NCBI GenBank assembly: GCA_002009975.1
Contig: MTLP01000001.1
Location: forward strand, 1-45,442
DNA length: 45,442 nt
DNA from: Thermococcus sp. JdFR-02
GTDB taxonomy: Archaea; Methanobacteriota_B; Thermococci; Thermococcales; Thermococcaceae
Direction: 5' to 3'
Shown piece after piece: positions 24,993 through 37,189 of this stretch. The first letter of the stretch is position 1. Each line of letters starts with the position of its first letter. The notes under the pieces were generated by a model. That model saw only the letters and a program-made list of their open reading frames with translations. It made no database searches and was not told the DNA's origin. Both the position numbers and the translations under genes were made by a program.

Positions 24993-25244
24993 TCACGATT
25001 CAGTATCTTTTCCATGTGCAAGCCTCTCTTTCAGCTCTCCCTCCGTAAGATACTCAATTTTGTTTGAATCACCAATAATGTACGGTTCTCTATGTTTGTG
25101 TTGTATTTTCTGATCAATGTAAAATGCTGTTAGAAGTATTATAACACCAATAATTTCAAATGACCCAACTTTCTCGTTTTCGGATAAAGGAATGCATAAA
25201 AGAACATAAAAAATAAAGATTGCAATCCAATATTTTATTTTCAC
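24993..25244 (-). CDS. Small 2-TM protein, YIIGDS family (copy 3)
   Basis: Two TM helices then PYIIGDSNKIEYLTEGELKERLAHGKDTES. Confidence 0.75.
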   Translation of the reverse strand: MKIKYWIAIFIFYVLLCIPLSENEKVGSFEIIGVIILLTAFYIDQKIQHKHREPYIIGDSNKIEYLTEGELKERLAHGKDTES

Positions 25245-25250
25245 AATTCC

Positions 25251-25512
25251 TCACCTTATCTTTTTGTTTAGGATTTCTTCAAGCTCATCTTGAGTCAAAT
25301 AAACCACCTCATTCGAATCCCCAATAACATATGGAGTTTTTATGTCAAAACCACCCAAAATTATATACGCTATGATAAGTGGAGTGCATAGGAATACTGC
25401 AATTAAGGCAAAACCAACAATCAAAGACTCCATTATATAACCCGCTCCTAATGAAGTCATAAAATACAGAAAAAAACAAGAAAAAGAGAGCATTCTTAAC
25501 TCGTCTCTTCAT
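25251..25512 (-). CDS. Small 2-TM protein, YIIGDS family (copy 2), probably frameshifted in T7 tract
   Basis: PYVIGDSNEVVYLTQDEL tail; RBS-associated ATG at 25512 is out of frame by one T. Confidence 0.6.
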
Positions 25513-25539
25513 CAGTCATCCCCCATACTCTCCCTGTAC

Positions 25540-25776
25540 TCACGACTCAATATCTTTTCCATGTCCAAGCCTCTCTTTCAGCTCTTCCTCCGTAAGATAC
25601 TCAACCTTACTTGAATCGCCGATGATGTATGGATTTCTCTCTTTTCTTTTGTCTTTTTGCAATAGACCAACTACAATCATGCTGGCAACTAATATATAAA
25701 GTACAATTTCCCTGGTTTCGACTAAATATAATAAAATTAAAAAGGAAATTGCAAGTAGTATCTTAATTCTCCTCAT
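25540..25776 (-). CDS. Small 2-TM protein, YIIGDS family (copy 1)
   Basis: TM region then PYIIGDSSKVEYLTEEELKERLGHGKDIES; RBS GGTGA. Confidence 0.78.
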   Translation of the reverse strand: MRRIKILLAISFLILLYLVETREIVLYILVASMIVVGLLQKDKRKERNPYIIGDSSKVEYLTEEELKERLGHGKDIES

Positions 25777-25781
25777 TTAAA

Positions 25782-25900
25782 TCACCCAAATAGCTGTTGT
25801 AATATTTCCTTGACAATCTTACTTCCATATTTGGCAATTAACGGCAAACTTTTTTGTCCTACCGATTTAACAAAAGGTATTATAGCTCCAGTGCTGAGCT
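25782..25900 (-). pseudogene. Orphan C-terminal stub, cationic amphipathic peptide
   Basis: ...GAIIPFVKSVGQKSLPLIAKYGSKIVKEILQQLFG*; stop overlaps RBS of next gene. Confidence 0.5.
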
Positions 25901-26422
25901 CATATGAATTTGTTGATTTGTTGTTTTCAAAAGTTTTAATGCACCGAGGATGTGAATTGTGCCAAAGGCTAAAATTGCCAATGTTTGGAAAGGTGACTCT
26001 GTAAATGTCAGTAGCATCCCACTCCAGAACAAGAGGAGGTAAGTCATTATACTGCCTTTCCACTTACCTGTAAGCTGTACAATCAGATAAAACGCAACAC
26101 TCACCAAGACAATTCTTGATGAAAATGCTAAGTATATTAATGCTCCAAGGGTCAATCCATCCACCAGATGAAGAGGTCTTAATGCCTTGGCGAGTATTAG
26201 GAATCCAAAGATTACAAGCCAGCCCAATATGCTACTTTTTGTTCCTGCCATTATTGTACTCCAGAATAAGAGAACATGTGGCAAGCCCAAATAAAGATTC
26301 AGCAGATACTCAAGCCGCTTCTGCTCAAGGGCACTAAATGTAGCAAAGTATACTAACATAAAAACAAGCAACAACACAGGAATAAAAACTAAAAGAAAGG
26401 CAGGAATTTCCCCAAAATTCAT
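25880..26422 (-). CDS. Multi-pass membrane protein (putative immunity)
   Basis: ~6 TM segments; start overlaps stop of GDNNLIVGDES stub. Confidence 0.75.
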   Translation of the reverse strand: MNFGEIPAFLLVFIPVLLLVFMLVYFATFSALEQKRLEYLLNLYLGLPHVLLFWSTIMAGTKSSILGWLVIFGFLILAKALRPLHLVDGLTLGALIYLAFSSRIVLVSVAFYLIVQLTGKWKGSIMTYLLLFWSGMLLTFTESPFQTLAILAFGTIHILGALKLLKTTNQQIHMSSALEL

Positions 26423-26454
26423 GACTCATCCCCCACTATAAGGTTGTTGTCTCC
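26419..26454 (-). repeat. Conserved tail repeat GDNNLIVGDES*
   Basis: GGAGACAACAACCTTATAGTGGGGGATGAGTCATGA. Confidence 0.85.
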
Positions 26455-26488
26455 CTAGTTCTGTTATTTCCTTTTAGATTCATCTCAA

Positions 26489-26698
26489 TCACGTAAGTAA
26501 ATCTTCTGTTGGTGTTAGGAGATATGCTATGAATATTAAGCCTGCGAACACAATGAAAACAAAGTGAACTACGAATAAGATTTCTGAAAGAGTCATGTTT
26601 TCAAACAAATCCGTAGCTAGTGCTGCAACAAACCAAATAAAAATGTAAAGAATAAGGAGCCATCTAGAAAGGACTTTAGGTATCTTGACCTTCATCAA
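26489..26698 (-). CDS. Small 2-TM protein, PTEDL family
   Basis: Two TM helices; ends LLTPTEDLLT; paralog of 26780-26986. Confidence 0.72.
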   Translation of the reverse strand: MMKVKIPKVLSRWLLILYIFIWFVAALATDLFENMTLSEILFVVHFVFIVFAGLIFIAYLLTPTEDLLT

Positions 26699-26724
26699 TT
26701 ATCCCCCACTATTAAGTTGTTACC
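26695..26724 (-). repeat. Conserved tail repeat GNNLIVGDN*
   Basis: GGTAACAACTTAATAGTGGGGGATAATTGA. Confidence 0.85.
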
Positions 26725-26779
26725 TCATCTAATATTCCCTTTGGATTCATTTCACTCACGTAAGTTAGTTGATCAGGTT

Positions 26780-26986
26780 CTAACGTAAATCTTCTGTTGG
26801 TGCTAAAAGATTCCAAATATACAAGAACACTAGTATTACTAGGAATGTTATAGTAGCTAATCCTAAAATCTCTTTAATACTGGCTTTCTCTGGCCATGCA
26901 AAAACAGAGAGAAAAAGAGAAATTATGTATATCTTGAGGAGATTTTTTGCATCTTTCAAGTCCGTACTCAAACTTAGAGGCATCAC
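26780..26986 (-). CDS. Small 2-TM protein, PTEDL family
   Basis: Two TM helices; ends LLAPTEDLR. Confidence 0.72.
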   Translation of the reverse strand: MMPLSLSTDLKDAKNLLKIYIISLFLSVFAWPEKASIKEILGLATITFLVILVFLYIWNLLAPTEDLR

Positions 26987-27015
26987 TCATCACCCACTAT
27001 TAAGTTGTTATTCAC
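26983..27015 (-). repeat. Conserved tail repeat VNNNLIVGDE*
   Basis: GTGAATAACAACTTAATAGTGGGTGATGAGTGA. Confidence 0.85.
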
Positions 27016-27470
27016 ATTTGTGACGGCTTCTGTCCCACCTCTTTCCGTATTATGTGAGAGTAAAGTGCTAGGACTGAGTAGGCGAAGTACACCACACCTA
27101 ACGCAATCCCTACTTTCACTGAACCAAGCTTCCAGTAAGTCATGACAAACGACAGTGCACACAGGCCGATCAAATACATCACACACAGTGCTGGACTCTC
27201 TGAGATTTTTCCAAGCACTCTCCCATTTATTTTGTTCTTCGCTATTAACAGCATGGACGCAAACGCCCCAACATATCCAGCGAGTTCATAAACTAGACCA
27301 AGGACTAACAGGATAGTCATAACCGTTGCTAGAGAGAGCACAGGTATAGTTTCATTTTTCCAATTCTTGGAGACTCCTTCTGCTACAATCATATAACTTA
27401 CTGAAACAATGAAAATAAAGTTAAGGACAAAGTAAACTAGGAATATGTCCACTAGACCCACTAATATCAC
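27012..27470 (-). CDS. Multi-pass membrane protein (putative immunity)
   Basis: ~5 TM; similar layout to 27538-27945. Confidence 0.75.
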   Translation of the reverse strand: MILVGLVDIFLVYFVLNFIFIVSVSYMIVAEGVSKNWKNETIPVLSLATVMTILLVLGLVYELAGYVGAFASMLLIAKNKINGRVLGKISESPALCVMYLIGLCALSFVMTYWKLGSVKVGIALGVVYFAYSVLALYSHIIRKEVGQKPSQM

Positions 27471-27473
27471 CCC

Positions 27474-27530
27474 TTAATCCTCAATTATTAAGTTATTATC
27501 TCCTGAATCATTGGGAAGTTCCACGTCAAA
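27474..27530 (-). repeat. Orphan stub FDVELPNDSGDNNLIIED*
   Basis: Matches tail of 27960-28451 cassette (PPDDPGDNNLIIGDN). Confidence 0.8.
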
Positions 27531-27537
27531 TCTTAAA

Positions 27538-27945
27538 TTATTTAGTCCTTAGGAGCAGTGCCATATAAGCTCCGTGAATCAATGCTGAAGTCAATATGGC
27601 GAATTTCACTGGGAGTTCGAAGGTTGTTAGTATGTATGCACAGATCAATAACATGGTCAATATGTATAGAATGCTGTAGTTGAATTTTCTGGCTAGGATT
27701 CCTAAGGTCTTGTCTTCTAGGCTGGTCTTAGTCATTGCTATTCCATATGCTAGGAAGGCAAGGGCCCCAGCTCCTTCGTGAAGTTTGCCAAAGATTAAAG
27801 TTATTGTCAGCATTGTGGGGGCGGAGAGGATGGGAGTCCTGGTATCAACCTTGGACTTCGGAGTTCCAATCACCTGAAGGATAAAAATTAGGAGAATAAA
27901 GAAAGCATTTGCAGAGATATAGAATCCAACAATTCCAACTCCCAT
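27538..27945 (-). CDS. Multi-pass membrane protein (putative immunity)
   Basis: ~5 TM; RBS GGTGAT directly after cassette stop. Confidence 0.78.
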   Translation of the reverse strand: MGVGIVGFYISANAFFILLIFILQVIGTPKSKVDTRTPILSAPTMLTITLIFGKLHEGAGALAFLAYGIAMTKTSLEDKTLGILARKFNYSILYILTMLLICAYILTTFELPVKFAILTSALIHGAYMALLLRTK

Positions 27946-27959
27946 CGAATATCACCTTG

Positions 27960-28451
27960 TTAGTTATCTCCGATAATGAGGTTGTTATCTCCTGGGTCGT
28001 CTGGAGGTATTGGTTCATTCATTACATGCCATACGAATTCTATATATAATACAAATATCCCTGCAATACCCCCAGCTGTTTTTGATGATACCTCAAGACC
28101 ATACCTCTCTGCAGATTTTTGAATTGCTTTGGTAAGACCTACCCATCCAGCTACTGTCTTGTAGTCACTAACTTTTCCCACTACCTCATTCTTAATTTTA
28201 ACAACTACACCGTATGCTCCCTTTACAACATCCCAAACCCCAGTTGGCTCTGGATTCATTTGTATTACGAACATTGTTGGGTTTTCTAGTTGATTTAGAT
28301 AAGCTTTGATTGCTATTGGTGTTCCTGGGTTCATGTCACTTAAATCCACTGGAATCCTCTCCTGTAATTCATCATTAATCGGAATCGTGAAAGTGAACGT
28401 TCCAGTGGAGTATGAGCTTAAACTCAAACTGCTCGGATTCGGAATTACCAA
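27960..28451 (-). pseudogene. Orphan alternative C-terminal cassette 3
   Basis: No signal peptide, starts mid beta-domain; Gly/Ala-rich hydrophobic helices, ends DNNLIIGDN. Confidence 0.65.
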
Positions 28452-28951
28452 GTTATCACTTCTTGGATATTGCCTGTTTTATAATTATGTAAGTATCTGA
28501 TTGATAGGAGAGCATAAACTACCAGAGGAGGTATTATTCCGATTATGTGGCTGGTTCTTAGTTTTCTGCAGAGCAACTTTAGCATTCCCACTGACATTAG
28601 TCCAAGTATGAGAGTGTTCACGAGTATTATACGTTCCTTCAAGTTCATTGAGAACCTTATAAACCTCTCACGCTGGTATTTTAGTCTAGCTGCTAAAATC
28701 GATGCCAAAGCAGTTGTCATAAGGATTCCCATTATTGCCGGGATTGAGTTGTTTAATCTTATTGAGAGTAGCATTCCAAAAATTCCCATCAGTACCAGGT
28801 ACGGAAAAACAACAATATCCACACCAAACTCTGGCAACTTACTTTCCACTTCGCCAACCAAGGGACGCATCCCCTCGTACTTAAAAACCAACACTAAAAT
28901 GAGAAAAACAAAAACAAAAAGAACCATGCCAAAATATACCTCACACATCAT
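28445..28951 (-). CDS. Multi-pass membrane protein (putative immunity)
   Basis: ~5 TM; likely ATG at 28951/28948 just after TDGNSICGDGG* stub. Confidence 0.75.
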   Translation of the reverse strand: MMCEVYFGMVLFVFVFLILVLVFKYEGMRPLVGEVESKLPEFGVDIVVFPYLVLMGIFGMLLSIRLNNSIPAIMGILMTTALASILAARLKYQRERFIRFSMNLKERIILVNTLILGLMSVGMLKLLCRKLRTSHIIGIIPPLVVYALLSIRYLHNYKTGNIQEVITW

Positions 28952-29023
28952 TTCAACCACCATCCCCACAGATCGAGTTTCCGTCAGTTTTAGTGTAGTT
29001 GTGTAGAGAATCATAAGATACAG

Positions 29024-29515
29024 CTAAGTTGTCAGTCTCGTTGATCTTTCTTGGAGTGTTAGTATTTTTAGTGTAATAATGTACTGTGATATATAAATTA
29101 GTGTGAATAATAGCAATGTTCTTGTCAAATTGCATTGTTCTCTTAGCTCCCAGTATACTTGAAGAGGAACTAGGTAAATAAAGAAGTACAAAACTGTGAC
29201 AATGACTTTTATTAGATTGTCTGAAATATGGAAGTGTCTTAGTAACAGGTATATCCCAAACCATATCATGAAAGATAGTAACAAATTCCAGACTACCGAG
29301 GCATCTGGAGTTAAGTAGTATGTAACATATGTAGAATTAATGTACACGAGAATTGGAAGAGATATCCCAAATGCTTTAAGCAACTTTGTATTTCCCTTTT
29401 CCCGCTTCCATTTTTCCGAATAGTACCAGATTGTTAAGATAAAACCAAAAATAAGTGAGAAATATAAGAAAGCAGACACAAATTGATACTCATGAAATAC
29501 TTCAAAGCACGACAC
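29024..29515 (-). CDS. Multi-pass membrane protein (putative immunity)
   Basis: ~5 TM; RBS GGAGGTGA formed by last codons of upstream cassette. Confidence 0.75.
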   Translation of the reverse strand: MSCFEVFHEYQFVSAFLYFSLIFGFILTIWYYSEKWKREKGNTKLLKAFGISLPILVYINSTYVTYYLTPDASVVWNLLLSFMIWFGIYLLLRHFHISDNLIKVIVTVLYFFIYLVPLQVYWELREQCNLTRTLLLFTLIYISQYIITLKILTLQERSTRLTT

Positions 29516-29519
29516 ATCA

Positions 29520-30461
29520 TCACCTCCTAACGGTGTCCCCTATAATTTCATTGTTATCCTGTTCTTGACCTCCGGGTATTGGTGGTCCAATGATACCCTT
29601 GTACATAAAATAAAAGAAGTCAATAGTTAAATGTTTCAAGGTAGAGAGGATAAATCCCACACCCTCTGGAATATCTGCAAGTATATGTATCTTTTCTCTT
29701 GTGTTTTCAGTCTCATAATAAGGAACTAAGGTTACATCATCCCCAATATAATTAGGTAGTACAGTTAAGTTTACATAGATCCTATAAGACATCCCATCCG
29801 GTTGTGTTAGGTACATGGTGTAAAATTCATCGCTAAATATATCTGTTGCCAAAGAACTATCAGCACTTATAACAAAAGAGAGAGTGTCTTCAACATTGCT
29901 CTGAGTTAAATTTGTTGCTCCAGTATCTATTCTTACACTTTTAGGTGGTCGATTAAACCTTGTTTGGGGATACAATGGATATTCTCCAAAAAATATCTCT
30001 CTGATGCTCACTTCCACTGAATTACTAGGTTCAAATATTGTACTCACATAGATCTTACATGAAATTATAGATTCAGTTCCAGGAGCACTCACTTGTACAA
30101 TTTTTGGAGTACATATCATCCAGGCTTCTATCTCTTCCTGTGAATTCACCGTTATCACTTTTTCATCCTCCTCCTGACCGTTAACTACGAGGTAAAACTT
30201 GTAAGTGCCCGGATTTGCGAAAGTGAAGTCAAACCAGTCCTGGTATTCCTCAAGAGGATCAAAGTCAACCTCAGCCTCCTTGACCTTAATAACACTGTGC
30301 CACACATCATCTGGCGAAGTGTAAACATAATACACCCTAACTGGAATAGAGTACCTTGGGGCGTTTTCATCATTCCTAACAGTAAGAGTGAACCTCACCT
30401 TAGCACCCACTGAGACATCACCACTAACTATACTGTTTTTGCTTTCTCTCCAACGCTTCAA
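29520..30461 (-). pseudogene. Orphan alternative C-terminal cassette 2 (CARDB-like domain + variable tip)
   Basis: VSVGAKVRFTLTVRN...FTFANPGTYKFYLVVNG resembles Ig repeats of the 1002-aa protein; no credible start; ends DNNEIIGDTVRR. Confidence 0.68.
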
Positions 30462-30888
30462 TTTCCTTAATAGCCTGCTGAAGCATCCTCAAGGACTTCC
30501 AATAAAGAATGAATGTAAGCACTGCCACTATCCAGACAAGAATTTCTTTTATTCCTGCTAGGAAAATCATCACTAAAACCATGAGTGCTGGAATGTGAAT
30601 ATGTTTCCATTTCTGTCTTAGATAATCGACGTCTAAAATGCCCCTTACAACTCTATAAATCAAGTAAATTGCGAGAATAGAAGCAAGCACTGGTGCAGCT
30701 CCTTTTCCTTGGGCTGCTGAAACATTACTGAATGCATATAGTAAAGAGAACCACGGGGCTAGTGTCATTAAAGTAACACTACCTTCATAATTCCCCCTCA
30801 TGCTCTGAAGTACCCATGTAATTATTAGAATAACAACATAAAATAGTGAGATTGCAAAAAATACAAAAAAAGGAAACTCTCCGTACAT
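30424..30888 (-). CDS. Multi-pass membrane protein (putative immunity)
   Basis: ~5 TM; follows TDGNKVIGG* stub. Confidence 0.78.
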   Translation of the reverse strand: MYGEFPFFVFFAISLFYVVILIITWVLQSMRGNYEGSVTLMTLAPWFSLLYAFSNVSAAQGKGAAPVLASILAIYLIYRVVRGILDVDYLRQKWKHIHIPALMVLVMIFLAGIKEILVWIVAVLTFILYWKSLRMLQQAIKEIEALERKQKQYS

Positions 30889-30893
30889 GCCCG

Positions 30894-31030
30894 CTACCCT
30901 CCTATGACTTTGTTTCCATCAGTTTCTACAAAATCTTCTGAATACTTCCACAACCACCACACCTCTTTTGCAATTCTAACTAACTTTTCAATTGCAATCC
31001 AGATAGCATTTTTAGGGGTTTCTATGACAG
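30894..31030 (-). pseudogene. Orphan C-terminal stub
   Basis: Open frame without start: VIETPKNAIWIAIEKLVRIAKEVWWLWKYSEDFVETDGNKVIGG*. Confidence 0.65.
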
Positions 31031-31032
31031 AT

Positions 31033-31413
31033 TTATATTCCTCCTTTTTGCTCTTGTTGAGTTAGATACCTTAAACTATTTCTAATGTGGATAAGTTCTT
31101 GTCTGATTTGCCATCTCTCAATTAAAGAGTACAACAACACGAGAGCGACAAAGTCTCTTAGACTTCCACTCATAGCAAAAGATATTGCAATAATCCCTAA
31201 CAAAATATACCTAACTACTAATTCTCCGGGATCCTGGTCAATATTTCCAAGATTAAGCTCCTTTTTAAGACTTTGAATTTCATTTTTAACCGGATAAAAA
31301 GCTGAGAGGAATGCAAATAGAATAAAGGATAAAAAATGAATCTCCTGTTTACTAAAAGCATATGTCAGTAGTGATAACACTGAAATCCCTATTGAGATAA
31401 TATCAAACTTCAT
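31033..31413 (-). CDS. 4-TM membrane protein (putative immunity)
   Basis: Two TM hairpins; follows cassette 1. Confidence 0.75.
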   Translation of the reverse strand: MKFDIISIGISVLSLLTYAFSKQEIHFLSFILFAFLSAFYPVKNEIQSLKKELNLGNIDQDPGELVVRYILLGIIAISFAMSGSLRDFVALVLLYSLIERWQIRQELIHIRNSLRYLTQQEQKGGI

Positions 31414-31434
31414 ATGTACCACCCTCCAAAATTG

Positions 31435-31998
31435 TCACTTTCCAGATATATCTTTCCAAATACCTTGACCAATATTTCTAACAAACAGAAATACTTGGAT
31501 AGCTGTTTTTACTGGTTCTGGTATTGGGGTCATTTCGACCATCACAGTTCCAATGTATTCTACTGGAGCATATGCCAATCCAAGGGGTGCAACTATCATT
31601 AATCCACCTTTTTTAATACCTCCTTCGGCATCCTCTCTCCAGTACTCACTTCCTTCATACCTTGCTATTATAACGTTGTCTAGGATTTTATCCCCGAGAT
31701 TTTCTATCCACAAGGTTATGCTTAAGTAGTGTGGTGTGTCTGGTCTGTCCCTGGTATAGTAACAATTCCCGCCAGAACAACTCCAGTGAGTCGTATAAGG
31801 TGTCAAGTCTCTGACGTCATCTAATCCTAAGGCACTTGCCAATCTTTCATCCAAAGGAACCAATGATGGATTACAATTCATGCTTGCAATAACGTTCCCC
31901 ACGGGTATCACTTCCACCCTAACCTCGCTCCAGTGCTCTTTCCCTTTTTCATTTGGCTTTCCGTTATAGTTGTTAAGTGTAAATAAAAGCCAATCCAA
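31435..31998 (-). pseudogene. Orphan alternative C-terminal cassette 1
   Basis: Begins LFTLNNYNGKPNEKGKEHWSEVRV, homologous to internal LFLDNYDGEPNGIGEEHWDEVRV of the 1002-aa protein, then diverges. Confidence 0.75.
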
Positions 31999-32011: not shown

Positions 32012-32356
32012 TCACTTGGTTATATTCGATTTATCCTCGGGCCTTCTTGTTAGTATTGCAAGAATTCCTAAGCCTGTTGAGATGCCCCACAACGTTCCAA
32101 GGGAGAGAGCCAGAATTAGATTATCGGTTACTGCCCATGCTGGAAGGACATAGAGTGGAAAGCTAACTACAATGCCTATAATGGCTTTCTCCTTTAGGGG
32201 CAACGCTTTCTTCCAGTAAAATGTAATGAACCCGATAAGATATGCAGTAATCAGGAACTGTGGGAGTAAATATTTCGCAAGATAAAACGCGCTCGCTACC
32301 GCGATAAGAAACATAAAAAAGGCAGGAAGTACAAATTTGTTCTTGGTTATCGGCAT
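32012..32356 (-). CDS. 4-TM membrane protein (putative cognate immunity)
   Basis: Four hydrophobic segments; RBS GGAGGTGA is the TGG AGG TGA end of the large gene. Confidence 0.78.
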   Translation of the reverse strand: MPITKNKFVLPAFFMFLIAVASAFYLAKYLLPQFLITAYLIGFITFYWKKALPLKEKAIIGIVVSFPLYVLPAWAVTDNLILALSLGTLWGISTGLGILAILTRRPEDKSNITK

Positions 32357-32361
32357 TGTAC

Positions 32362-35300
32362 TCACCTCCAGCTCCATGCTCGTCTGATAAAGTCAGCGAT
32401 TACTGGTGCCAACTCTCCAAGTCCCTTTAGAACCTTTCCTGCACGTATGAGCTTTGCTGAAACAATAATTGCTTTAACTTCACCACCAATTAATACAGCA
32501 TTCGTTCCAACGTCCACTATTACGTCACTGTTGTCCTGCTTTATATTCACCACATCGAAGCCTGTGAAAGTAATGTCTTCTGCGTTCTGTGGAGAGATTA
32601 TGTATTCTATTGATACTCCAACGTAAGTTCCAAACAAGTCTTTCTCAAGTGTTATTAATCCCGTATGGGCAGTGTTTTTGAAAACTATTTCTGCAGTTTG
32701 GGAAGGTTCCACCTTAGCTGGATATTCAATCATCCATGCAGATTCTAATGATTCCATGAACTCTTGATTCTCAATTGACCAGTTTTCAACACTTACAGAG
32801 TTTATACTAACATCATTTTGAGTAGGATTGTAAATAATAGCCCTACAAACCAATTTAGCCTTGTATTCTATGCCGTTCCAGTTAAATTCGGGATCATTGC
32901 ATTCGAATGCTACTTGTTGTAGTTCTGTTTCGTTGCTTGGGTGTACTATCACTCTTACTTCGTCCCAGTGCTCTTCGCCTATTCCGTTAGGCTCACCATC
33001 GTAGTTGTCGAGGAAGAGGGTGTAAGTGTGGGTTCCAACGCCAGAAACTTGCAGGCTGAATGAAGTTAAAGTGTAATCCTGAGCACTCGCTGGTAATGTT
33101 GTACTAACCCTCTTGATCACTGCACCATCCTCATCCACAACATAACCAAACAATGAATAAGCATTGCCCAAGTAATTCGAAGCTTTAACCGTAAAAACCA
33201 CAGTACCACCACCCACAATCTCCGTTGGCATTGCCTCCAAACTAACACCAAACTGAGCATTCGCCGGCACTACATTTACAGTGCCCTCCCTGTAAGACGC
33301 AGTCCCCCAAGGCACCGAAACCATAACCCCCCACACATATCTTCCCACTTTTTCCGGAGTCCAGTAAAGCTTAAACGTTGCACTCTTTCCACCATTCAAT
33401 GAAACAGACTCACTATAAACTTCAGAACCATTAACTTTTAACTTTAGTGTGAAACTCTTAGACGAGCTGTAAGTATTCTTAACTTTGACCCTAAATTCTG
33501 CAGTGTCACCAACTCTCGGTGGATTTGGATAAAGTTCAACGCTTTCGATTGTTAAGTTGCCGGAGTCTGTACTACTGTCATCGTCTTCCACCTTTATTGT
33601 TCCCACTGCATATGTTGTCCCATCAACCTTTGCGTAGTAGGTTCTTTCGCCTGGTGTATTGAAAGTTAACTGCAGAGTCTTGGTTTTAGTTTCGCCAGCT
33701 GGAACTGTGAGTGTATCCTCTTTAGATTTCCCGCCAGCAGTGACCAGCAAATTGAACGTTTTATCACTCGTCATGTAATTGGTTATCGTGAAGGTAAACT
33801 CTACTGGTTCATTAACTTTCACAATAGCCTTTGAAACGGAAACTTGAGAATCGAACAGCTGAATTGTTTTTGAGACTGTTTTTATAACCATTGCCTCCTC
33901 ACCACAGCCTGCTGGAGCGCTTAAAACTTCCTCTCCACCGGGAACACTGTTTATATTGTTGCACCATTTTGTGTAGGTGACTTTTATGGTTTTGCTGAGC
34001 GTTATCTCCTGAGCATTGCTTGGAATGTCCTCAGTGAAGTAACTTCCCACGGGCAAAGTTATTGCTCTACTTTCCCCAGCTCCCAAGTCAAATGGTCCGT
34101 ATTCTTTATTCCCATCAATGTAAATGTTGATGTTTGTTGCCTGAGCATTCTCTGCCCTAACAGTGATCTGAACCTTATAGGAAGCTTTATCTGGAGTTAT
34201 TGAATTAGCAATAATTTCACCATTGATGTACAGAACAGTCTCTCCAGTGTTTGGATCTAAGGCTTCTTGGGTAAGTGGATCTTCTAGGTTTTCACCAGTG
34301 GTGAAAGTGCTTGGAGGCTTAATTGGTGGGAATGGCTTGATAGGACTGTCACATGAATAGCTTATCATCGAAGAAACTTTAACTGCGATTAATGCTTCCT
34401 TCAACTCTGCAATCTTTCCGTTTAAAATTAATTTTAACTCCTCATTATCATTCCCAAAGTCTTTTGCTAACAGTAGCGTTTTTATTTGTGAAGCCTTTTC
34501 GTAAGATTCTAAAGCCTTCCAGTAATATTGTACTTTGTATGTCTCATAGCATATAACTCCATTCTTAATCTTACTTCTTTTTTCTGTGCCACCATCTAAG
34601 ATCAAAATACCGTTAGAACTGTAAGTACTCCCAGAACTACTAATCACTCCATAAATTTTATCCTTAAGCCTTTGAATTGTCGTCAATTGCTCATCAAGCG
34701 TTCCATTATAGTAAGCTTTGTAAAAATTAGTCCACTCCCCCTGAAGTTGGGGCAAAATTATATTCTCTCCTTCGGGAATGCTAGCATTCTCCGCATTACT
34801 CCACTTCCATTTCTCCAGTGCCCATGTTTCGTAGTAGTTGTATTTGAAGCCAACCTCAATGAAAGCTAAGCTGAAATCTTCCAAAAACTTGGTTAAATTA
34901 AAATCTTCATTAATTTGATCAGAATTCTCAATAATGTACTGTTCTAAGGCTTTAATCTCATCATCACTCCAGCCCTGTTCCTTCAAAGCCTGGATTGTCT
35001 CCTCAGGCAAACCATTTTGAGAAATATTTTGAGCCAGCTCCCTAAGCTCCTCTGCAGTATAGTAAGTCTTAACTCCCGAATTTTTAATCTCCTCCAGACT
35101 CTGCCATATTAATGCTGAAATTTGAGCAGCATTTTGTGAACCATTTTGAGAATTCTTGATTAGCTCCTGAGCTAAATTTTCAATTTGATTTGGGTCATTA
35201 GTATTGTTCAGCTGAACTATTAATTCTGCTTCTCTGTTTAAGATTTTCCAGAATTCTTCATAGGCTTGGTTATCTAATGCTGAGACATAAATACTCTGAT

Positions 35301-35370
35301 TTTCTGCTACAATAAAACTTAAACTAATCATTAGATATATTATGACTAAGCTTACTATTTTTCTCATCAT
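32362..35370 (-). CDS. Large secreted protein: helical N-domain, Pro linker, CARDB/Ig-like repeats, amphipathic C-terminal tip (putative polymorphic toxin)
   Basis: Signal peptide; Q/E/N-rich helices; PIKPFPPIKPP; repeats such as PNPPRVGDTAEFRVKVKN; cationic hydrophobic C-terminus. Confidence 0.85.
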   Translation of the reverse strand: MMRKIVSLVIIYLMISLSFIVAENQSIYVSALDNQAYEEFWKILNREAELIVQLNNTNDPNQIENLAQELIKNSQNGSQNAAQISALIWQSLEEIKNSGVKTYYTAEELRELAQNISQNGLPEETIQALKEQGWSDDEIKALEQYIIENSDQINEDFNLTKFLEDFSLAFIEVGFKYNYYETWALEKWKWSNAENASIPEGENIILPQLQGEWTNFYKAYYNGTLDEQLTTIQRLKDKIYGVISSSGSTYSSNGILILDGGTEKRSKIKNGVICYETYKVQYYWKALESYEKASQIKTLLLAKDFGNDNEELKLILNGKIAELKEALIAVKVSSMISYSCDSPIKPFPPIKPPSTFTTGENLEDPLTQEALDPNTGETVLYINGEIIANSITPDKASYKVQITVRAENAQATNINIYIDGNKEYGPFDLGAGESRAITLPVGSYFTEDIPSNAQEITLSKTIKVTYTKWCNNINSVPGGEEVLSAPAGCGEEAMVIKTVSKTIQLFDSQVSVSKAIVKVNEPVEFTFTITNYMTSDKTFNLLVTAGGKSKEDTLTVPAGETKTKTLQLTFNTPGERTYYAKVDGTTYAVGTIKVEDDDSSTDSGNLTIESVELYPNPPRVGDTAEFRVKVKNTYSSSKSFTLKLKVNGSEVYSESVSLNGGKSATFKLYWTPEKVGRYVWGVMVSVPWGTASYREGTVNVVPANAQFGVSLEAMPTEIVGGGTVVFTVKASNYLGNAYSLFGYVVDEDGAVIKRVSTTLPASAQDYTLTSFSLQVSGVGTHTYTLFLDNYDGEPNGIGEEHWDEVRVIVHPSNETELQQVAFECNDPEFNWNGIEYKAKLVCRAIIYNPTQNDVSINSVSVENWSIENQEFMESLESAWMIEYPAKVEPSQTAEIVFKNTAHTGLITLEKDLFGTYVGVSIEYIISPQNAEDITFTGFDVVNIKQDNSDVIVDVGTNAVLIGGEVKAIIVSAKLIRAGKVLKGLGELAPVIADFIRRAWSWR

Positions 35371-35513: not shown

Positions 35514-35927
35514 TCACTTCAGGATACCTTCCAAAACCAAAATCTTTTTCTGTCTCAAATACACAACGGGAATCCCCCTTTCTCTAAGCTTTTTCTTTAA
35601 CCCCTTATCATTAGTGCACACTATGACATTTGATCTTTTTAGTGCAAACTCATAAATCTGCTCATCAGTAGGCTTTTCTCCAAATTTTCCGATATCTATT
35701 ATTTCAAACCTCTCAATTAACTGTCTCGCCATTCTAATGGCAACTAAATCTTTCCCTCGTGATTTCTTTTCTATAAGGTCTAACTCTTTAATCACAACAT
35801 TAGGAATTACAACTTTGAAATTAACGTCAAGAACTCTCTTTAGTTCGCCAATTATATCAACACCAAACTGACCGGGAATCAGGAGAAAATTCGTGTCCGG
35901 AACAACAAGATAGCCTTTCTTTTCCAT
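35514..35927 (-). CDS. PIN-domain protein (Fcf1/Utp24-like)
   Basis: VPDTNFL, EL, TDE, CTND; conserved after eIF2gamma. Confidence 0.92.
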   Translation of the reverse strand: MEKKGYLVVPDTNFLLIPGQFGVDIIGELKRVLDVNFKVVIPNVVIKELDLIEKKSRGKDLVAIRMARQLIERFEIIDIGKFGEKPTDEQIYEFALKRSNVIVCTNDKGLKKKLRERGIPVVYLRQKKILVLEGILK

Positions 35928-35956
35928 ATAACTCACCAAAAAAGAAGTAAGAAATG

Positions 35957-37189
35957 TCACTCCTTAATTAAGCCATATCCAATTAAGCGCCATCTTGATC
36001 CTACTTGCCTGCTTATTGCCACCCTTTCTCCAACTTCTGCACATATGGGTATTTGGAGCTTTAGCTCAATCTCGTCTTTTCCTAAGCCTGTGACAAGTCC
36101 CATTGTTCTTGCAGTTCCAACGTTCAAAAGCAAAACTTCTCTTTTCTTTATTGGTTCAACTTTAAGCTCTTCCTCAGTTCCAACAACCCTATCCAGAAGA
36201 TGAACTTCTATTCTAAGTGTATCCCACACTGGTGGCAATTTTCCAGGCTTTCCTACTACATTTCCAGCCATTAAATCGTTCTTAGTCAAGAAGGGATCTA
36301 ATTTAGTTCCAATTCCAACCAATCCACCGGGATAAGCTTCATCTACGAAACGACCTCCAGCTTGAAGGGAAACTATCTCAGTAACTATTGGCTCATATCT
36401 AATCCTTCCATGCTCCTCATATGGAACACCTGGTCTTATTTCAATTTCGTCCCCTACTCTTAACTTCCCTTGGATTATTGAACCACCTATTACTCCCCCA
36501 ACAAGTTTTTCTGGTGGAGTTCCAGGCTTATTCACATCAAAACTCCTTAAGACAAGCATTTTAGGTGGCTTATTTGGATCCCTCTCTGGAGTTGGGATAA
36601 AATCTTCAATTGCTTTAATTAAAATGTCAATGTTCGCTCCATGCAAAGCTGAGATTGGAATTATTGGAGCATTTTCTGCAACAGTTCCTTTAACAAACTC
36701 CTTAATTTGCTTGTAGTTTTCTAAAACTTGTTCTTTTGTAACTAATTCAATCTTATTTTGAACTATGATGATGTTCCTATTTCCAATGATTTGAAGAGCC
36801 ATTAAGTGTTCTTTAGTTTGAGGCTTTGGGCACGGTTCATTTGCCGCGATAACCAAAATTGCACCATCCATTAATGAAGCACCAGCCAACATTGTTGTCA
36901 TCAAAGCCTCGTGTCCCGGAGAATCTATGAAAGAAACTCTTCTTTCAAACTCAGTTTCATGCCCACAATAGGGACAAACTGGAGAAGTAGAATATTTCCC
37001 ACAATTTGGACATTTCCTTATCTCGGCATCGGCAAACCCTATTTTTATTGTAATTCCTCTCCTCAGCTCTTCACTATGAGTGTCTGTCCAGATACCAGTT
37101 AATGCCCTTGTAAGCGTCGTTTTACCGTGATCAACGTGACCAACCATACCAATATTAACTTCAGCTTGCTTAAACTTCTTTTTTGACAT
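35957..37189 (-). CDS. eif2g: Translation initiation factor 2 gamma subunit
   Basis: [31 protein letters not shown]. Confidence 0.98.

Follow-up and report, generated by a model that had tools for sequence, protein, structure and literature searches.

A short C-terminal tail recurs on the minus strand of a 45,442-nucleotide (nt) stretch of DNA from Thermococcus sp. JdFR-02 (positions 1 to 45,442 of contig MTLP01000001.1), which is called the window in the following. Sequence comparison identifies this tail as a motif already published for the C-termini of proteins of the VARTIG module (VARiable Thermococcales IG), and the locus as the downstream part of a further VARTIG island. Overall, the best explanation of the repetition, and in our judgement a probable one, is that the tail is the VARTIG motif, present mostly as relics, and that it marks the junctions between gene cassettes. 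The module was described by Makarova, Wolf, Karamycheva and Koonin in 2021 (PMC8416519); the one other relevant publication found on it is an editorial of 2023. It consists of a large immunoglobulin (Ig)-domain protein (arCOG07710; also arCOG14200) that heads an operon, followed by shorter homologs of its C-terminal ~200 amino acids (aa) and by many small membrane proteins, and its content is hypervariable between Thermococcales. The motif, DNNxxxGG or D[ND]NxxxG[GD], was found at the C-terminal end of 31 VARTIG proteins, often after a hydrophobic region, and was reported in no other Thermococcales protein. A sortase-type signal was proposed for it; the loci offered no candidate for the enzyme. 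Neither the motif nor the idea of a signal is therefore new. The Discussion of that paper states the recombination mechanism and sites as unknown, for want of close genomes. Compared with its main text, in which the words ‘intergenic’ and ‘Shine’ do not occur, the apparently new observations are the motif relics in front of membrane genes, the overlap of the motif with Shine-Dalgarno (SD) sequences and the junctions mapped at the motif, although the supplements may show some of this.

The locus shares the features of VARTIG without an essential difference: a secreted Ig/CARDB head protein, homologs of its C-terminal region, small membrane proteins, hypervariability and the sequence D[ND]NxxxG[GD] after a hydrophobic stretch. 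The 5′-most gene of a co-directional array encodes an arCOG07710-type protein, assigned by domain and homology. This protein carries a CARDB domain at residues 605-682 (E 1.4e-11 in Pfam) and an N-terminal hydrophobic segment that resembles a signal peptide by eye, while no signal peptide was predicted. Homologs of this protein were found in 56 of 99 Thermococcales genomes with 30-75% identity, and in neither of the two genomes of the second family. Downstream of it lie C-terminal Ig fragments, among which open reading frames (ORFs) of 163 and 313 aa match Ig genes of the related genomes G095, G097 and G098. Between 25880 and 32377 lie eleven ORFs of 68-189 aa, each with one to five predicted helices, as counted by a simple hydropathy rule that was used for all membrane-helix counts given here. 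The gene content forms mosaic blocks when compared with orthologous loci sharing the pyrophosphatase flank. Named database matches belonged to Thermococcus and Pyrococcus, consistent with a restriction to Thermococcales, no search having been aimed outside this order.

The repetition of the tail is genuine, specific to the locus and far from what chance would give. Eight tails, all on the minus strand, end at stop codons at 26419, 26695, 26983, 27474, 27960, 28953, 29520 and 30894, exactly as previously listed. The pattern N-x-[IVL]-[IVLC]-G-[DG] has eight matches in the six frames of the window, seven of them in this locus and 0-4 codons from a stop. The eighth tail, GDNNLIIED at 27474, escapes this strict pattern since E replaces G. 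With the looser pattern [DGN]N.[IVL][IVLC][GE][DG], 20 matches were obtained in the whole assembly (G000; 2.36 Mb in 44 contigs, 99.99% complete, 4.72 M six-frame residues). Eight of these sit in a 4.5-kb stretch, all at most four codons before a stop, and the nearest of the other 12 is seven codons away from any stop. All stop-linked copies (≤4 codons) of the genome are thus confined to this locus. At the DNA level, a repeat search grouped the tails t1-t5 (numbered in the order of the stops above) as a 26-nt direct-repeat family of five copies that are 73-100% identical.

On the sequences available, the family motif is D-N-N-x-[IV]-[IV]-G-[GD], with 0-4 further residues, at the extreme C-terminus. 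Toward that terminus, intact proteins show an Ig sandwich, a low-confidence helical stretch (often with Trp), a Pro/acid-rich linker and the motif. In 20 fetched loci and the window, 49 of 71 loose-pattern matches lie at most six codons from a stop. After addition of 12 loci, 70 distinct tails were collected from 33 loci, of which 34 are on frames of at least 140 codons, 23 on frames of 30-139 codons and 13 on shorter ones. The motif closes full-length frames of 874-1098 codons in six loci (L032, L038, L040, L043, L046 and L056), which answers the question raised earlier of whether full-length homologs end in it. In the database family of the 163-aa Ig ORF, GDNNLI[IV]G[DG] ends 13 of the 14 C-terminally complete members. 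The bare DNA pattern without a stop was no commoner than its reversed control, whereas the stop-linked pattern gave 99 matches in 99 genomes compared with 33 for the reversed control; only the in-frame, stop-linked form is specific. A hand count of the 68 stop-linked sites in frame with a true stop gave 59 TGA, 7 TAA and 2 TAG. In single-contig genomes, 25 of 29 stop-linked sites lie within ~10 kb of a head-protein homolog, as judged by eye. Locus L008 (G014:C1:533371) has an isolated relic-like tail that ends in DENVERNNVVIGGGK before the stop. Its genome has no match to the head protein at E up to 1e-5, and the tail may be left over from a VARTIG locus that has been lost.

Variation between the copies distinguishes selection on the peptide from selection on the DNA. 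In the 34 long-frame tails, most first and second codon positions have an entropy of ~0-0.5 bit per base, and values of 1.0-1.9 bits are found for third positions and all through the x codon. Since first and second positions vary little and third positions are free, selection acts on the peptide and not on a DNA site. Conservation is therefore at the peptide level wherever the tail is translated, and the peptide-level constraint suspected from synonymous differences in the window is borne out by this three-base periodicity across 33 loci.

Within the window, only two real ORFs are closed by the tail, namely the 163-aa Ig ORF ending at 27960 and the 313-aa Ig ORF ending at 29520. The six remaining tails are untranslated relics of Ig gene ends that lie in 26-140-nt gaps between membrane genes, so that the earlier view of eight protein ends holds for two of them. 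The features of the locus are the following.

32362..35370, minus strand: main VARTIG protein, ORF of 1002 aa with conserved N-terminal region and Ig/CARDB domains
32012..32377, minus strand: 121-aa membrane protein with three predicted helices; its reading frame overlaps the main gene's end
31435..31998, minus strand: 187-aa orphan Ig C-terminal fragment that begins at the GEEHW(D/S)EVRV block and has no DNN tail
31033..31422, minus strand: 129-aa membrane protein (ORF)
30894..31032, minus strand: relic t8, ending ETDGNKVIGG-stop, motif at 30897-30920; last ~47 codons of a main protein of the G098 type
30424..30888, minus strand: 154-aa membrane protein, 91% identical to the gene after the main protein in G098
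29520..30461, minus strand: 313-aa orphan Ig protein, ending PPIPGGQEQDNNEIIGDTVRR-stop (t7, translated), motif at 29535-29558
29024..29515, minus strand: 163-aa membrane protein (ORF) with four predicted helices
28953..29023, minus strand: relic t6, ending TDGNSICGDGG-stop, motif at 28962-28985, in the gap past the 163-aa membrane gene
28445..29014, minus strand: membrane protein with five predicted helices; likely start an ATG at ~28951, just past the t6 stop, not 29014
27960..28451, minus strand: 163-aa orphan Ig C-terminal cassette, ending EPIPPDDPGDNNLIIGDN-stop (t5, translated), motif at 27966-27989
27538..27945, minus strand: 135-aa membrane protein, distantly paralogous to the 152-aa protein (26% identity, E 3.5e-7)
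27474..27537, minus strand: relic t4, ending VELPNDSGDNNLIIED-stop with G replaced by E, motif at 27477-27500
27012..27470, minus strand: 152-aa membrane protein, 86% identical to the gene after the intact Ig gene in G095
26983..27011, minus strand: relic t3, NNNLIVGDE-stop, a chimera that fills the whole gap between two membrane genes
26780..26986, minus strand: 68-aa membrane protein (ORF)
26695..26779, minus strand: relic t2, stop-GNNLIVGDN-stop, motif at 26701-26724, with a conserved 3′ flank common to the t1 unit
26489..26698, minus strand: 69-aa membrane protein, paralog of the 68-aa one
26419..26488, minus strand: relic t1, stop-GDNNLIVGDES-stop, with flank, motif at 26428-26451
25880..26422, minus strand: 180-aa membrane protein, whose start ATG overlaps the t1 stop (ATGA)

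The relic nature of the six tails follows from their reading frames. For 26419 and 26695, an in-frame stop is found 0-2 codons ahead of the motif. The 27474 tail has 16-17 open codons upstream, the 28953 tail lies within a ~68-nt gap, and the 30894 tail has 47-48 open codons upstream without an ORF of at least 30 aa. The 26983 tail occupies the 26-nt gap past the stop of the 152-aa membrane gene; a long open frame at this tail was rejected as a gene, as it is this membrane gene read in the wrong frame. Likewise, a 103-aa ORF at 28953 was dismissed as an out-of-frame reading of the 163-aa four-helix membrane ORF, which has a perfect AGGAGGTGAT ahead. Most tails here are non-coding, and the two artefacts call for caution in the annotation of such loci. 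The relics have also begun to change. The t8 tail, TDGNKVIGG here and TNKNNIIGK in G097, is a decayed form of TDKNNVIGG, with which an intact 1070-aa protein ends in G098 (counterpart ETDKNNVIGG-stop), and the G095 and G097 copies of relic t3 have a 1-nt deletion. Relics inherit the peptide conservation of translated copies and then decay. The 1002-aa main protein of the window ends in FIRRAWSWR and, according to a class alignment, belongs to a C-terminal class without the motif. Its sequence TNAVLIGGE was considered as an internal copy and rejected, since the alignment of this class has no DNN-type conservation there.

Four sister genomes with an orthologous locus allowed the junctions to be followed at the level of single bases. 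In G097, G095 and G098 the locus lies at the equal position, adjoining the pyrophosphatase gene. In G095, an intact Ig gene ending in NTPVSEDTGDNNLIIGD before its stop precedes the homolog of the 152-aa membrane gene, whereas the window keeps only the end VELPNDSGDNNLIIED. At this t4 junction, identity to G095 and G097 begins exactly at GGAGAT AAT AAC and is 92.6% downstream, and the upstream sequence is unrelated. For t1, intact Ig frames of 318 codons in G098 and 190 codons in G096 end in GDNNLIVGDES, ahead of a homolog of the 180-aa membrane gene; the window has these 30 nt behind a spacer of unrelated sequence. The 180-aa protein is 92% identical to the G098 protein, and the G096 copy is 98.7% identical in DNA. 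At t6, identity to G097 begins at the D codon, with unrelated sequence upstream. Relative to G098, the window has additional cassettes of 3.7 kb in total, which lie between roughly codon 110 and the last ten codons of the G098 Ig gene. In G096, the 180-aa and 68-aa membrane cassettes occur in the opposite order, in blocks bounded at 26455 and 27011. The t3 tail (26983) is a chimera whose upstream side matches G095 and G097 and whose downstream side matches G096, the two being joined inside the motif. Metatranscriptome contigs of one run, which are informative on mosaic arrangements and not on transcription, starts or strand, and whose uncovered parts carry no meaning, include a piece covering precisely 26701-27011, and they have loose ends at positions 27011 and 28961. 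In an all-against-all comparison, whose rows are reciprocal and whose related genomes are redundant, the upstream block ended between -15 and +30 nt of the first codon of the motif in 22 of 61 rows. None ended between -16 and -55, and the other 39 ended 56-724 nt upstream. The motif is hence a preferred block boundary, but not an exclusive one.

These junctions suggest how cassettes could be rearranged. Owing to the overlap of stop and start, nothing but the motif (~24-30 nt) would be shared where Ig tips and membrane genes, otherwise unalignable, meet. Exchanges preserving both genes intact would end at the motif, and an exchange at this place would uncouple Ig tips from membrane genes and leave membrane cassettes flanked by relics. 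Block switching at the motif would thereby give membrane genes with different Ig tips, in different orders or without an Ig gene. Crossover within the motif would then be a by-product of peptide conservation and not its selected purpose. The alternative, that the ~27-nt sequence itself is selected as a recombination site and as a carrier of a ribosome-binding site for stacking membrane (‘immunity’) genes, appears improbable to us. It could account for the six relics without an Ig gene in one locus, for the 13 of 70 tails with fewer than 30 open codons upstream, which occur in other genomes too, for the sharp block edges at the motif and for its overlap with the SD sequence. However, no fixed DNA site is conserved, since variation is free at third codon positions and in the x codon, and the relics gather non-synonymous changes and an indel. 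Moreover, translation initiation would need just the last ~10 nt, no integrase was reported in VARTIG neighbourhoods in PMC8416519, and Pfam gave only weak further hits in the scanned locus proteins. A selected recombination site is not supported because the DNA is not conserved beyond its coding content and the relics decay. The proposal of a second recombination anchor is therefore partly supported, in that homology blocks to sister genomes break at the motif, but not as regards a selected DNA site.

The second property of the tail is its close coupling to the following membrane gene. For the SD analysis, an archaeal small-subunit (16S) rRNA was searched in the G000 assembly and gave no match. 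As the assembly is near-complete, the rRNA operon is probably unassembled, and the anti-SD sequence was taken from the relative G097. Its 16S rRNA ends in GATCACCTCCT, the complement of which gives AGGAGGTGATC as ideal SD sequence. Both GGNGGN-TGA and GGTGAT-GAGTC-ATGA match this complement. In the window, the next start codons range from a 4-nt overlap with the stop to 14 nt past it, in agreement with the spacing that had been noticed before. In 21 loci, 45 tails are followed by an ORF. With start codons picked by a heuristic, this next ORF starts between a stop overlap and 10 nt past the stop in 42 cases, and has at least one predicted membrane helix in 40. An exact SD match of at least 5 nt was present at 24 of the 45 tails and overlapped the G[GD] codons at 14, so the suggestion that GGGGAT or GGTGAT codons double as ribosome-binding site is supported. 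TGA is the stop in 36 of the 45 tails compared with 550 of 1215 long ORFs of this genome (45%). Together with the stop, mostly TGA, the G-[GD] codons are accordingly predicted to double as SD and start region of the coupled membrane gene, and the GGAGGG codons of t8 are predicted from their sequence to serve as SD for the next gene. The window's two translated tails each come with an SD of their own, AGGAGGTGAT inside the last codons of the 313-aa ORF for t7 and AGGTGAT past the stop for t5, yet they keep G-D. The SD alone thus fails to explain these residues. As a further possible signal, TTAATA within AACAACTTAATAGTG, which ends ~13 nt before the start codon in t1-t3, was considered by eye as an archaeal TATA box. 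This was dropped because the box is too near the start codon for an upstream start site and is absent from t5, t6 and t8. Between 24900 and 32400, a search with Rfam gave no RNA family match at E up to 0.1.

The same coupling might point to an effect of the nascent peptide, in which the last eight residues slow termination at a weak UGA and promote re-initiation on the overlapping membrane gene. The stop/start overlap or near-overlap in 42 of 45 tails and the TGA excess would fit such an effect, and terminal Gly-Gly is suggestive, as small C-terminal residues are linked to poor UGA termination in E. coli. On the other hand, the spacing of motif and stop ranges over 0-4 codons, a latitude seldom tolerated by arrest peptides, and the TGA excess is also explained by the SD (GGTGA) and by ATGA or TGATG overlaps. 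We regard this effect as very improbable.

The peptide may be a recognition tail for a partner outside the variable cassettes, acting in sorting, processing or docking. Variable cassettes cannot encode the partner of a conserved tail, and this partner should therefore be conserved and encoded elsewhere. A more specific form is the sorting signal proposed in PMC8416519, in which a sortase-like transpeptidase would cleave the tail and fix the Ig protein to the surface, relics and junctions being incidental decay. The tail resembles sortase and archaeosortase signals in being a short, family-specific motif near the C-terminus of a secreted surface protein, beside a hydrophobic segment. Signals of sortases, exosortases and archaeosortases consist of a motif, then a membrane helix and then a basic tail (LPXTG, PGF-CTERM, PEP-CTERM). 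In VARTIG proteins this order is reversed, with the hydrophobic or amphipathic helical stretch upstream and the motif 0-4 residues from the stop in 70 of 70 tails, and there is no basic tail. Furthermore, no member of PF04203, PF09721 or TIGR04178 was found in the 99.99%-complete genome, by a search that covered known families and for which a TIGR04178 control detected three archaeal genomes; an enzyme of an unknown class may be present. The loci themselves hold no candidate enzyme according to PMC8416519, and many main proteins lack the tail. The extreme C-terminal position, the family-specific occurrence and the peptide-level constraint, together with the published proposal, keep a pure sorting signal in consideration, though we find it rather doubtful.

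Several observations weigh against the interpretation of the tail as a conserved recognition peptide that marks cassette junctions. Among 28 frames of at least 700 codons in the 33 loci, not all of which are confirmed as VARTIG, only six match the motif pattern. Three others have variant ends (one TDKNNVIGG, two DNDxFVG), and other recurrent endings exist. Since most of the long frames, including the main protein of the window, end differently, the tail is not obligatory for the system. The 0-4 residues past G[GD] speak against a fixed C-terminus as the recognised feature. In both AlphaFold models the predicted local distance difference test score (pLDDT) of the tail is below 50, and the models are uninformative on its role. 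AlphaFold2 gave a mean pLDDT of 52.9 with a disordered tail for the 163-aa Ig ORF (16 sequences), and for the 240 C-terminal residues of the main protein of G095 (9 sequences) residues 159-240 including the tail are below 50. The latter's C-terminal region folds as an Ig sandwich with pLDDT 80-94, for which Foldseek returned generic Ig-like folds only. A complex prediction of residues 60-163 of the 163-aa Ig ORF (helical tip and tail) with the 135-aa membrane protein scored 0.00 and gives no verdict either way. The breakpoint comparison between relatives, which had been proposed as a check, places 28 of 591 breakpoint clusters in motif windows (1.2% of the span, 3.8x), a modest excess next to the 106 clusters at other ORF stops (9.9% of the span, 1.8x), in a test that is optimistic because related genomes are not independent. 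As other ORF stops are enriched too, much of the effect may reflect selection for whole genes. In addition, BLAST blocks run through conserved motifs, so that their edges cannot place a crossover inside the motif, except at t3, where both flanks switch.

Some further features adjoin the tails. For the 69-aa and 68-aa genes, the final ~11 codons together with the 3′ flank (26468-26523 and 26735-26811; families D7 and D8) show 87-89% identity in DNA, while the two proteins are only 35% identical. Motif and conserved 3′ flank of these genes together form a ~105-120-nt conserved junction module, for which gene conversion is possible. The 135-aa membrane protein returned itself alone in a word-indexed search and six representatives in a profile search. 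A 93-aa frame at 25782-26063 overlaps the 3′ end of the 180-aa membrane gene (25880-26422). Its counterpart in G098 and G096 ends in NDAGDDNLIVGDEG before the stop, as a further relic tail, and the window diverges ~12 nt before the motif of this tail and is without it. At 24993-25776 (minus strand) lie three tandem paralogs of 83, 80 and 78 aa with one or two predicted helices, which share PY(I/V)IGDSx(K/E)(V/I)xYLTxxELxxxL near the C-terminus and have homologs in VARTIG loci of G095, G097, G047 and G040. A contig from the metatranscriptome links 27981 in the tail region with 25088, inside the IGDS motif of these paralogs, which hints that IIGD is common to both. Directly upstream of the head gene, at 35514-35960 (minus strand), is a gene for a PIN_9 domain protein (E 7.9e-30), whose position is kept in G097 and G095 (72-77% identity).

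A second block of conservation lies on the other side of the variable tip. At 32940-33030, corresponding to residues 783-811 of the main protein, the conserved block LFLDNYDGEPNGxGEEHW(D/S)EVxVEV is found where orphan Ig fragments begin. The 187-aa fragment matches the main protein at these residues; it and fragments in other genomes begin at the GEEHW block, and homology blocks switch there too. It thus looks like an upstream anchor. Such an arrangement resembles polymorphic toxins, in which pre-toxin anchors such as VENN of CdiA and PxxxxDPxGL of Rhs are known. The likeness consists in a short conserved coding motif beside a variable tip, in orphan fragments and partner genes stacked downstream, and in a block switch at the motif. 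Anchors of polymorphic toxins sit before the variable tip, while the VARTIG motif sits after it, at the stop codon; an upstream anchor-like block does exist here, in GEEHWxEV. Neither a recognisable toxin domain with a cognate immunity protein was found here, Pfam giving nothing beyond CARDB and weak hits in 19 scanned locus proteins, nor is a toxin domain reported for VARTIG neighbourhoods in PMC8416519. The labels toxin and immunity, which the preliminary description had used, are assumptions only and are not supported.

It is conceivable, but in our view unlikely, that the tail is a true second, 3′ recombination anchor, kept so that Ig tips and membrane-partner genes can reassort independently among Thermococcales. 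If this were true, the relic-flanked units of motif and membrane gene would behave as exchangeable cassettes, VARTIG would be anchored on both sides of its variable tip, and a recombination-promoting feature, left open in PMC8416519, would be identified. The junctions described here provide a concrete lead on VARTIG shuffling, in which one and the same membrane gene follows various Ig tips or just a bare relic, or changes its place in the order.

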